Of a stretch of DNA of 64,000 bases, positions 51,357 to 59,520 are shown in pieces (the stretch's first letter is position 1; each line of letters begins with the position of its first letter). The notes beneath the pieces were generated by a model, which was given only the letters and a program-made list of their open reading frames with translations, had not been told where the DNA came from and made no database searches. Source of the DNA: Podarcis gaigeae (Eukaryota); the NCBI GenBank assembly GCA_964106915.2, contig OZ066924.1. The stretch is one strand, 5' to 3'. Both the position numbers and the translations under genes were made by a program.

Positions 51357-51641
<285 letters not shown>

Positions 51642-53186: not shown

Positions 53187-53405
53187 CTTAGCTATCTGCT
53201 CCAAGGCGAAGCCTGCATCACAGTAGCTCGGCCGCTGCAGATATTCCGGATCGGGAGGCGCGGCGCGTCTGTTCCCGCCGGTCCTCCTCCGCCTCCTGCT
53301 GCCGCTTCTCCCCGGCTGATCCGGCTCTCTGCAGCCGCCGCCGCCGCCGCCTCCTCCATCGCCGCTGCTGTTCTCCGGCTCGGAGGCATTAACAGCTGAG
53401 GCCAT
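53187..53405 (-). CDS. PTCH1: PTCH1 exon 1b coding part (73 codons, [10 protein letters not shown]...[18 protein letters not shown])
   Basis: ATG in GGCAACATGG context at 53405. The translation matches the Patched-1 N-terminus (RPSYCDA.FALEQI.K). GT donor (GTGCTT) at 53186; phase 0 into exon 2. Confidence 0.96.
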
Positions 53406-53664
53406 GTTGCCGCCGCGCAGCCGGGGCTGCCGCCGCCGCTGCTGCTGTTGTTCTGGCGACCCAGGGGCTGCGTCCCGCGCGGTTCCCCCCAGCGCGCTGC
53501 TGCTGCTCCGGGGCGATCCAGCGGGACCGGGGGTGGGCTGGCTCGGGGGCGACGCTCTGCTGCTGACAGACCACTTCTTCATACCGCGTTGGCTGCTGCT
53601 GCTGCTGAAGTTGCTGCCCTAGCTGCTCCCGGCGAGTCAGACCCCGAGCCTTCCATTGCAACAT
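53389..53664 (-). CDS. Overlapping out-of-frame uORF (91 aa) ending 17 nt inside the PTCH1 CDS
   Basis: ATG at 53664 (ORF track 53389..53664), 259 nt upstream of the main ATG and in a different frame. Confidence 0.5.
53579..53656 (-). CDS. uORF in PTCH1 exon 1b leader (25 aa [25 protein letters not shown]); extendable to an in-frame ATG at 53713 (44 aa)
   Basis: ATG at 53656 in strong context (GCAATGG), open to TGA at 53581-53579. Translation is inferred, not shown. Confidence 0.6.
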
Positions 53665-54375
53665 TTCGCGAGGATCCGGAGGTCGCCGCCGCCGCCGCCG
53701 CCGCGTCCCACATCCAGTGTGCGAGGGTGAGCGGGGCCAGGCGCTCTCGGCGGGCTCGCCTTCCCCCCGCCTCGTCCTCTCGGGCTGCGGTCGCTCTCCA
53801 GGCTCCTCACCGTCCGGCCGCGGGAAGAAAAGCCAGACTCCCCCTCCGGTCTCCTTTTCCTCGCCGAAGCAGAAGGGGGCTTGAAGGGAGCCTTGATCTC
53901 AGCGCTGGTGGCGGCGGCGGCGGTGCTGCTGCTGCTGCTGCTGCTGCTGCGGCTTCTCCTCCGTCTCGGTGGGCTGTATCATTCTGTCTGGGTGCAGCAG
54001 CGCTGTCTCTTAAGATCTCCCCGGGCTCCCCGTCTCCTCGAGATGCGTGTATCTCTCGCTCTTTCTTCCTCTGCGTGTATGCAGCAGCAGGCAACAGCTC
54101 CCTTGCTTCAATAGCAGAGATGAAGGAGGGGAGGGGGGGAGGAGGAGGAGGGGGGAGAAGGCACTCTCTCCATTTGGATAAAGAGGAGGAGGAGGAGGGG
54201 TGAAAGGGAGAGGGGAGAGCGCGGGGAGGGGGGCCGAGAGAGAGAACTGAAATCCCGCCCCTGGGGCTGTCAGATGGCTTGGGTTTCTGGCCTGCGATTG
54301 GCTCGACGAGGGCAGAAATTACTCAGCAAACATGACTATTATTAGCTGCTTAGCAACAGCTCACCAAAGTAGAGA

Positions 54376-54384
54376 GACCACCCA
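54376..54384 (+). promoter_or_regulatory. GLI consensus site GACCACCCA (proximal)
   Basis: Exact consensus about 1 kb upstream of the ATG. PTCH1 is an established direct GLI target. Confidence 0.9.
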
Positions 54385-57279: not shown

Positions 57280-59520
57280 AGAAGTCCCTCCCCGGGGCGG
57301 GGGTCACACTTCTGTGGCCCTGCTCTCCCTTTTGCATAATTCCCCATTACAGGCTAACCCCTCCCCGCGCCCTTTTCCTTTCCAAAGCCCTCGCCCTATG
57401 CCGGTTAAAATGTTGGTCCCCAAACACAACCTGGCGGCTCAAATTTAACAAGCCCTATCTTAATATATCCTCCGCCTCCCTCTGCCCCCCTCTTCCTGTG
57501 GTCTGGTTAATTTCATACACAAGAGATGAATTACCGAAGGGATCTAATTGGCCTTGTTTCTGCAATATTGTGTGTGTGTGTCTCTCAGTGTAAAAGTCTC
57601 CTCTCGACGTGGGTGGTCGGAGCGGAGGACGTCTCCAATTTGCCTCCTGGCTGATGCGCACGAAAGAGCGCGGCCGCTTTCCTCGCGAGCACGTTGCCCC
57701 TGATCCATCTGTCCTTTCTTCTTTACATTGGTCCGCATTGTTACCTTTAATATGCATGGCCCGCGCATGTAGCTTGTGCCTGGGCAGCAGGATTTGTCAA
57801 CTTCAAGAAGGAATCGCGAGGCTCCTCCTGCGGATTTAAGGGAGACGGAGCGCTGCCTTTGTGTGTGTGTGTGTGTGTTATCGGGCTCCACGGGCCCGGT
57901 CTGCCTGCCGTTCTTTGGCGTCTTGCTTTTTCCACGTGGCCTGGGAGAATGGAGGGACGAGGCAAGGCCTGCAGCGGGCCCAGGCCAGCCATCGCTCCAG
58001 CTGGCCTTTTCTTTCTCGCCTGGTTGCAGCGCGATCTGCATTTCATTAGAAACCTTCCCTTGGCGCCACAACAATCGCCCTTCCAAGCAACCTCGGTGCA
58101 CTGGGACCAGCCACCATAGAGAAGTCCTCCTAGGTGGCGAGAGAACTTCCAGAGTTTCGATCTGTCCTTGCCATGCCGAGGTCGTAAAGCGAGGCCTTGC
58201 AGCATCCGGTTACATTCATAAAAAGAGACGACGTTGAAATAAACCACCTGCCTTCACGTGGGGGCGGGGAGGGGAGAGGGAGGCAAGACGTGAAACTCTT
58301 CAAGGAGTTGGCATGAGTGTGTTTGCATCCTCTTTCACGGTGCAGCCTGAGCTAATGCGTGTTTTGTTAGAGGAAAGTCCCCGGCCTTGCTTACTGGGAG
58401 TACAGGTAATTTGCAAAGCTTTAAGCGTGCAGCATGGTTTTTTTGTTTTCCCCCCAACCTATCACAACAACCGAAGAATGAAGTATTTGTTCCTTCTTGA
58501 GAAATGCTAAAAGAGAGAGAATGTCAGTGGCAGAGACAGGACTGTCACTGAAATGAGACCTGGAACAGACAGGTGTGTGCCTCTGTGTGTATTACAGAGA
58601 CCACCACACCGCTTCTCACCTTGAGAAGAGTCGCTCTCCCTGCGTCTTAAGCAATGATTTGAACTAAGGTTGGTCACGGCTCAACCTGTTGGCAATTTCA
58701 GGACAACTCTGAATAAGTACTAATAATGAGCTGGATCCAGGCATCCCCTTGAAATCAATGGGGCTTGAGTTAGTAATGACTAAGGAGTCATTACACTTAC
58801 CTCCGAGTAGGCCTACTGTACTTAGGAGGAGGGATTTAAGACAACTGAGCAGTTTTAGATGTGGCTACACACGTGTTTCTGTGCATGTATGAACAAGGAC
58901 ACGCGTGACTTTCCTAACTTAGTACAGGCCCGCTTTTTACACTTGTACAAAGCCCATTGCTAACAGACTGAGTGTGTTGTGATGAGATTCACCTTTGCCT
59001 GGCGGGTTTCCACTTCAGCATCCTGGGCGGCGGCTGCAGCAGCAGCAGCGTCCGCGGAGAGGCTTTTGCAAAGAGCGAGCCGGGGCTTGGGAAAGGCCCC
59101 GGAACGGCAGGACTCAAGCCGCCCTCGCCTCGGCCCCCGCCCGCCTTCCTTCTGGGTCCCCTCCTCGGCAGCGTCAGAAAGGGAACCGCTCGAGCCAACT
59201 TGTCAAAATAATGCGGCTAATTACCCCTGATCTCCTTTAATGGCAAGCTGCTTCGCACGCCACAAAGGAGCGGAGGAGGGATCTGCAGCTCCTACGCGCA
59301 GGAAAGCAGGCGGGTCGCCCCGCAGAGATCTCCGGGCGAGAGGGCCACCAAAGGCCCCGAGAGCCCCAAGTTCACCAGGGAGGGAGGAGGGAGTCAGGAT
59401 GGGAGGCCCCTGGGTTAAGGAGCATGGGAAGGGCATCCCAGTTAGGGAGAAGGCGCCCGTGCAAACGGAAACTCTCGGGGCTGGCGAGCCAAACCCCACA
59501 GATAGGTTTGTACCAGGGGC
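57280..59520. promoter_or_regulatory. Distal CpG-rich region (possible upstream alternative promoter/exon 1a region)
   Basis: Two CpG-rich patches (about 57.3-58.3 and 59.0-59.5 kb), a GLI site and E-boxes. No exon boundaries could be assigned. Confidence 0.5.
57610..57618 (-). promoter_or_regulatory. GLI consensus site (TGGGTGGTC, distal)
   Basis: Exact consensus within a second CpG-rich block about 4.2 kb upstream of the ATG. Confidence 0.85.

Follow-up and report, generated by a model that had tools for sequence, protein, structure and literature searches.

The analysed window is a 64,000-nt stretch of the Podarcis gaigeae genome (contig OZ066924.1), and PTCH1, which encodes the Hedgehog receptor, a dosage-sensitive tumour suppressor, lies on its minus strand. 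The coding part of PTCH1 exon 1b (MASAV...EQIAK) occupies positions 53187..53405 (-), with the exon ending at 53187. The canonical start codon at 53405 is in an optimal context (ggcaacATGg, with A at -3 and G at +4). Exon 2 (GKATGRK...) follows at ~51365..51557 (-), and loose ends of RNA-seq reads fall at 51365. Over 134 aa the product encoded in the window is 96% identical to the Podarcis muralis model P0120. Intron 2 is about 40 kb long in the lizard, extending from 51365 to ~10930 (-). The upstream alternative first exon of the Podarcis isoform X2 was not found within the 64-kb window. A search with the GLI consensus motif returned two exact sites in the GC- and CpG-rich region, one just 5' of the exon-1b leader at 54376 (+) and the other 3 kb beyond it at 57618 (-), as expected for a Hedgehog target. 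Farther 5' of PTCH1, an interspersed repeat, probably a SINE, was recognized by eye in two similar copies at ~64000-63790 and ~61990-61770 (-).

The leader of exon 1b carries a cluster of upstream AUGs (uAUGs) on the same strand. The first uAUG opens an upstream ORF (uORF) of 21 codons (54108..54173, -) and the second a uORF of 27 codons (53899..53982, -). The uORF of the third uAUG, 44 codons in length (53579..53713, -), has the same frame and the same stop as that of the fifth, which comprises 25 codons (53579..53656, -) and begins in a context with G at both -3 and +4. The fourth uAUG starts an overlapping ORF (oORF) of 91 codons (53389..53664, -) that is out of frame with PTCH1 and reaches its stop at 53391, just past the canonical start. 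A search with this oORF gave one match among five candidates. A homologue of the oORF, P0083, is 56% identical, ends in QHGLSC and has the same frame relative to the coding sequence (CDS).

This arrangement is familiar from mouse. The long leader of mouse Ptch1, mapped by 5' RACE, contains five uAUGs, of which the third and the fifth use one stop and the fourth opens an oORF reaching into the CDS (Fujii 2017, PMC5316868). Our comparison by eye equates mouse uAUGs 1-5 with lizard positions 54173, 53982, 53713, 53664 and 53656, and places the 5' end of the mouse leader near window position 54300. The two clusters are alike in the order of the five uAUGs, in the common stop of the third and the fifth, in the fourth being an oORF and in the frame relation to the CDS. 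When the second uAUG cluster was removed in mouse, translation rose about sixfold, PTCH1 increased and Shh signalling weakened, the fourth uAUG contributing little to the repression (PMC5316868). By its layout, the lizard leader thus appears to be the repressive uAUG cluster of Ptch1 exon 1b, repression itself having been shown in mouse. A preliminary description of the window, made from the sequence alone, had reported the uORF beginning at 53656 and ending GCG GTA TGA. That uORF is real and ends as described on the minus strand, but the ATGs at 53713, 53664, 53982 and 54173 had been missed. Nor had the uORF been placed within the characterised Ptch1 cluster, all five members of which are present in the lizard.

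The lizard differs from mouse in having a sixth AUG, located within the shared uORF stop (ATGA; 53580..53582, -) and in frame with PTCH1. Its context is cgcggtATGaag, where the letters TGA (53581-53579) are common to the ATG at 53582 and the uORF stop. With G at -3 and A at +4, the context can be considered adequate. From this ATG to the canonical one, 177 nt downstream, the frame is shared and contains no stop, exactly as the preliminary description had it, and the translation given there was reproduced. The resulting putative N-terminal extension of PTCH1 comprises 59 codons (53406..53582, -) and has homologous annotated extensions in other species. Upstream, the extension frame is bounded by the nearest in-frame stop, a TAG at 53619..53621 (-). 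The 59-aa extension is rich in S, P, R, G and Q, has a net charge of +8 and contains four S/T-P sites. A search of the ESM Atlas gave no usable match, and a leader motif had no matches in metagenome contigs.

We asked RNA-seq data whether this part of the leader is transcribed, using about 12% of each of two 2026 runs from a close relative, which yielded 22 and 39 mapped reads. Read depth extends from ~53181 to ~54100, with almost none in the intron. First mates fall mostly on the plus strand in both runs, which fits minus-strand RNA. Since depth reaches ~54100, the transcribed leader includes the ATG at 53582 together with uAUGs 2-5; the first uAUG (54173) is outside the coverage in this species. 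Leader coverage is thin, with a depth of 0.2-0.8 in the bin containing the ATG at 53582, and no joint between exons 1b and 2 was among those listed for the two low-depth runs. Two contig sets add little, one of them covering 53713-54080. Overall, the layout of an extended proteoform is present here: an in-frame upstream start, followed by a stop-free stretch, within the mRNA.

At the position of the sixth AUG, mouse has a GUG. The mouse sequence at the common stop reads gccgtg TGA, and by hand count the GUG opens 37 codons (111 nt) free of stops in frame with the CDS. The distance from the shared stop to the main AUG is 107 nt in mouse (also by hand count) and 173 nt in the lizard. Both numbers leave 2 on division by 3, and hence the mouse GUG is in frame just as the lizard AUG is. 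A published construct with one added nucleotide, which aligns the mouse uORF with the main frame, agrees with an in-frame GUG (PMC5316868). The mouse GUG has a poor context (C at -3, A at +4). Fujii et al., who capitalised the favourable non-canonical starts of the leader and found that mutating those had little effect, did not include this GUG among them (PMC5316868). The available text of that paper does not discuss an N-terminal extension. The preliminary description had supposed that mammals in general have GUG at this site; this holds for mouse, where it was checked at the DNA level, but not for two marsupial models, which start with Met.

To see how widely the extension occurs, we compared 299 proteins, 232 of which have the exon-1b signature. 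Of these, 49 extend N-terminally beyond the canonical Met (a number that takes in the window's own product and an unrelated junction of 10 aa) and 162 begin with it, the other 21 being left unclassified. The compared set draws on the best 120 of 392 profile matches and on 15 of the 57, 579 and 612 members of the large clusters. Counting named species with an exon-1b model among the matches listed, the extension is found in models of 15 of 16 squamates (Podarcis raffonei being the exception), in 11 of 14 turtles (all but Eretmochelys, Carettochelys and Pelusios), in both marsupials and not in the single tuatara. Lacerta agilis, Naja, Laticauda, Gopherus and Chrysemys, which have other first exons or truncated models, were left out of this tally. 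Among the matches listed, the extension is absent from all named bird and placental models, and there is no crocodilian or monotreme PTCH1. Newt models start elsewhere, and those of fish begin at the canonical Met. Loss of the extension cannot be read from a short model, because Pseudonaja, Chelonoidis and Anolis each have both an NCBI model with the extension and a UniRef-only model that starts at the canonical Met.

The AUG-started extensions span 31-71 aa in squamate, turtle and marsupial models. All except one begin with M-[KR]-[KRQD] followed within a few residues by S-V-[STI]; the exception is Anolis, with 31 aa beginning MKPP. A bird-type ORF (P0200), representing a passerine-type exon 1b, would encode a 70-aa extension that begins MKR. 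The start and its frame thus appear to be common to several species, although the tally is biased, because protein databases display only cases with an in-frame AUG and not frameshifted ones. In support of the preliminary description, the frame turns out to be old, with AUG-started extensions in squamates, turtles and marsupials and an in-frame GUG in mouse. The same description had called the long isoform unannotated. This is not so, as NCBI models of most reptiles compared already start at the upstream AUG. Long models such as XP_028604786 (Podarcis muralis), XP_037757644 (Chelonia mydas) and XP_003761358 (Sarcophilus) carry the same extension as the window. They are predictions, and the start is not tied to the uORF stop in them. 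Two side observations emerged from these comparisons. The extension of the marsupial models P0020 and P0131 contains a run of 5-6 tryptophans derived from a triplet repeat, which is odd for a disordered cytoplasmic segment. In addition, a second protein, named 'patched homolog 1-like', accompanies PTCH1 in many birds (clusters of P0023, P0069 and P0030, among the members listed), which we take to be possibly a W-linked copy.

An open frame, as such, carries little information in this leader. The 177-nt extension stretch contains only 13 T, and all three frames are open over 173 nt of the lizard leader. In 10,000 dinucleotide shuffles a given frame was open in 77% of cases and all three in 42%. 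We therefore rejected the lack of a stop in 59 codons as evidence for coding, since chance alone would usually leave a frame open. These numbers bring in the most serious alternative, namely that the AUG and its open frame arose as side effects of the conserved uORF stop, of a T-poor and GC-rich leader, of triplet slippage and of selection for an oORF that stays out of frame. The long protein would then be tolerated noise, picked by gene predictors as the longest ORF. The three open frames, being what chance predicts, agree with such a passenger AUG, and so does the fact that mouse manages without an AUG.

The rate of evolution points in the same direction. With a fixed 28-species tree (the topology was entered from general knowledge; Anolis, P0133 and the bird ORF were left out), the amino-acid tree length is 3.56 for the extension and 1.71 for the adjacent disordered canonical segment, a 2.1-fold difference in rate. 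The twofold faster evolution of the extension peptide relative to its neighbour favours the passenger explanation. Invariant columns number 7 of 55 in the extension and 13 of 49 in the adjacent canonical segment. Identity between turtles and squamates amounts to 55% in the extension, 77% in the adjacent segment and 93% in the core. Conservation steps up sharply at N-M-A-S-A, that is, at the canonical start.

The same sharp rise speaks against the idea that reptiles and marsupials initiate mainly at the upstream AUG, with the canonical AUG being secondary there. The upstream AUG is indeed the first in-frame one, has G at -3 and is where most reptile models begin. However, the canonical AUG retains its optimal context, and fish, bird and placental models begin at the canonical Met. 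We consider such a reversal of roles very improbable.

Insertions and deletions are more informative, and they cut both ways. In pairwise comparisons with the window, 27 of 40 indels are homopolymer-like (10 species, the pairs not being independent), and the prevalence of such indels is again in line with a passenger. At the same time, the frame is kept through non-repeat indels, including a loss of 12 aa in a skink, insertions in marsupials and a loss of 22 codons in mouse, which suggests that the extension frame has been held. The oORF, whose frame relative to the CDS is unchanged in P0083 and in mouse, could equally be what holds the extension frame, and the protein comparisons do not distinguish between the two causes. 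Against the oORF stand the small repressive contribution of the fourth uAUG in mouse and the fact that only one of the two types of frameshift would put the oORF in frame. The close relative differs from the lizard extension by one 3-nt insertion and two substitutions. In this very small sample, one of the substitutions is silent and the other missense when read in the extension frame; read in the oORF frame, each of them alters an amino acid. These differences, too few to weigh, are consistent with the extension frame and run against a passenger.

Two points favour the start codon itself. The uORF does not fix the A of the ATG at 53582, because this A is the synonymous position of the last codon of the uORF. 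Also, uAUGs in an adequate context are usually counter-selected, and yet this one persists in three amniote clades. On the other side, any single base would in any case stay unchanged over the 28-species tree with a rough probability of 0.2. Taken together, we regard a passenger AUG as a real possibility, though not the one we favour.

Our preferred interpretation is that the ATG at 53582 is an ancestral amniote alternative start of PTCH1, placed within the stop of a repressive uORF and reached by leaky scanning. We put its probability at roughly one half, judging from comparative sequence data. Ribosomes leaking past the ATGs at 53664 and 53656 would initiate at 53582 and produce a receptor 59 aa longer; ribosomes that have translated the uORF would resume at the optimal canonical AUG, 173 nt downstream. 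Few ribosomes may reach the ATG at 53582, because five AUGs precede it and two nearby ones have G at -3. AUG is the likely ancestral state in amniotes, since squamates, turtles and marsupials have AUG as opposed to the mouse GUG; a change from AUG to GUG would then have occurred on the line to mouse. The N-terminal segment of PTCH1 is cytoplasmic. A basic, disordered, Ser/Pro-rich tail there could, as a guess, affect turnover or trafficking.

Leaky scanning is favoured over a more direct coupling between the uORF and the long form. In the coupled scheme, put forward in the preliminary description as termination-reinitiation, ribosomes finishing the uORF would move one base backwards and initiate again at the ATG at 53582, so that the long form would depend on uORF translation. 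The ATGA overlap does have the stop/start geometry known from viruses, well within the spacing of about 20 nt between stop and start, and the mouse uORF has its stop at the same place. In caliciviruses and influenza B, AUGA overlaps support reinitiation after a long ORF, which depends on a TURBS element (Sherlock 2023, PMC10275272). According to the same source, reinitiation after short uORFs always takes place downstream, up to hundreds of nucleotides away (PMC10275272). The lizard shares only the overlap with the viral systems: its uORF is short (25 or 44 codons), whereas restarts at overlaps go with long ORFs, and there is neither a UGGGA near the stop nor an unusual structure. The TURBS motif UGGGA, complementary to 18S rRNA, usually lies at a spacing of 40-80 nt. 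The sole UGGGA of the lizard leader is at 53710, 129 nt 5' of the stop, where the mouse sequence differs, and the RNA folding of the region is no better than that of shuffled sequences (z 0.56). Given the short uORF, the distant UGGGA and the shuffle-like folding, we consider leaky scanning the more plausible path to the ATG at 53582, and coupled reinitiation unlikely as the main route.

Leaky scanning to the alternative start can be extended into a broader, tentative and rather doubtful proposal, in which amniotes would have inherited a second, longer PTCH1 and the leader, besides dimming PTCH1, would sort ribosomes, leaky scanners yielding long PTCH1 and reinitiating ones short PTCH1. In placentals, only a trickle of initiation at the GUG would remain, with the frame kept.

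As to what is new, the uORF cluster has been described before, and automated models of reptiles and marsupials already contain the long form. What seems to be new is the link between the two: the stop of the uORF contains an old start in the PTCH1 frame, which three amniote clades have as AUG and mouse has as GUG. In the open-access literature we found no paper on an N-terminal extension of PTCH1. PTCH1 is absent from 12 supplements of a human survey (Fedorova 2022, PMC9789052) and, by text search, from the main text of Ivanov 2011 (PMC3105428). Extended proteoforms as described in these two studies resemble the PTCH1 case in having an in-frame upstream start, a disordered N-terminus and AUG or a near-cognate codon depending on the clade; unlike in those, the start codon in the lizard shares bases with a repressive uORF's stop.

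If the interpretation as an alternative start is true, the known quantitative control of Hedgehog output, exerted in mouse by the leader uORFs, would be joined by a qualitative switch in the form of a long proteoform coupled to them. Should human keep the frame as well, variants in the 5'UTR, among them the CGG duplication linked to basal cell carcinoma, would at the same time be coding changes of a minor isoform. Conversely, if the extension is a passenger, the start is wrong in many reptile PTCH1 models. The difference between the marsupial AUG and the mouse GUG is a clear change that is cheap to test. Finally, about 170 nt of the lizard leader present three potentially translated frames.
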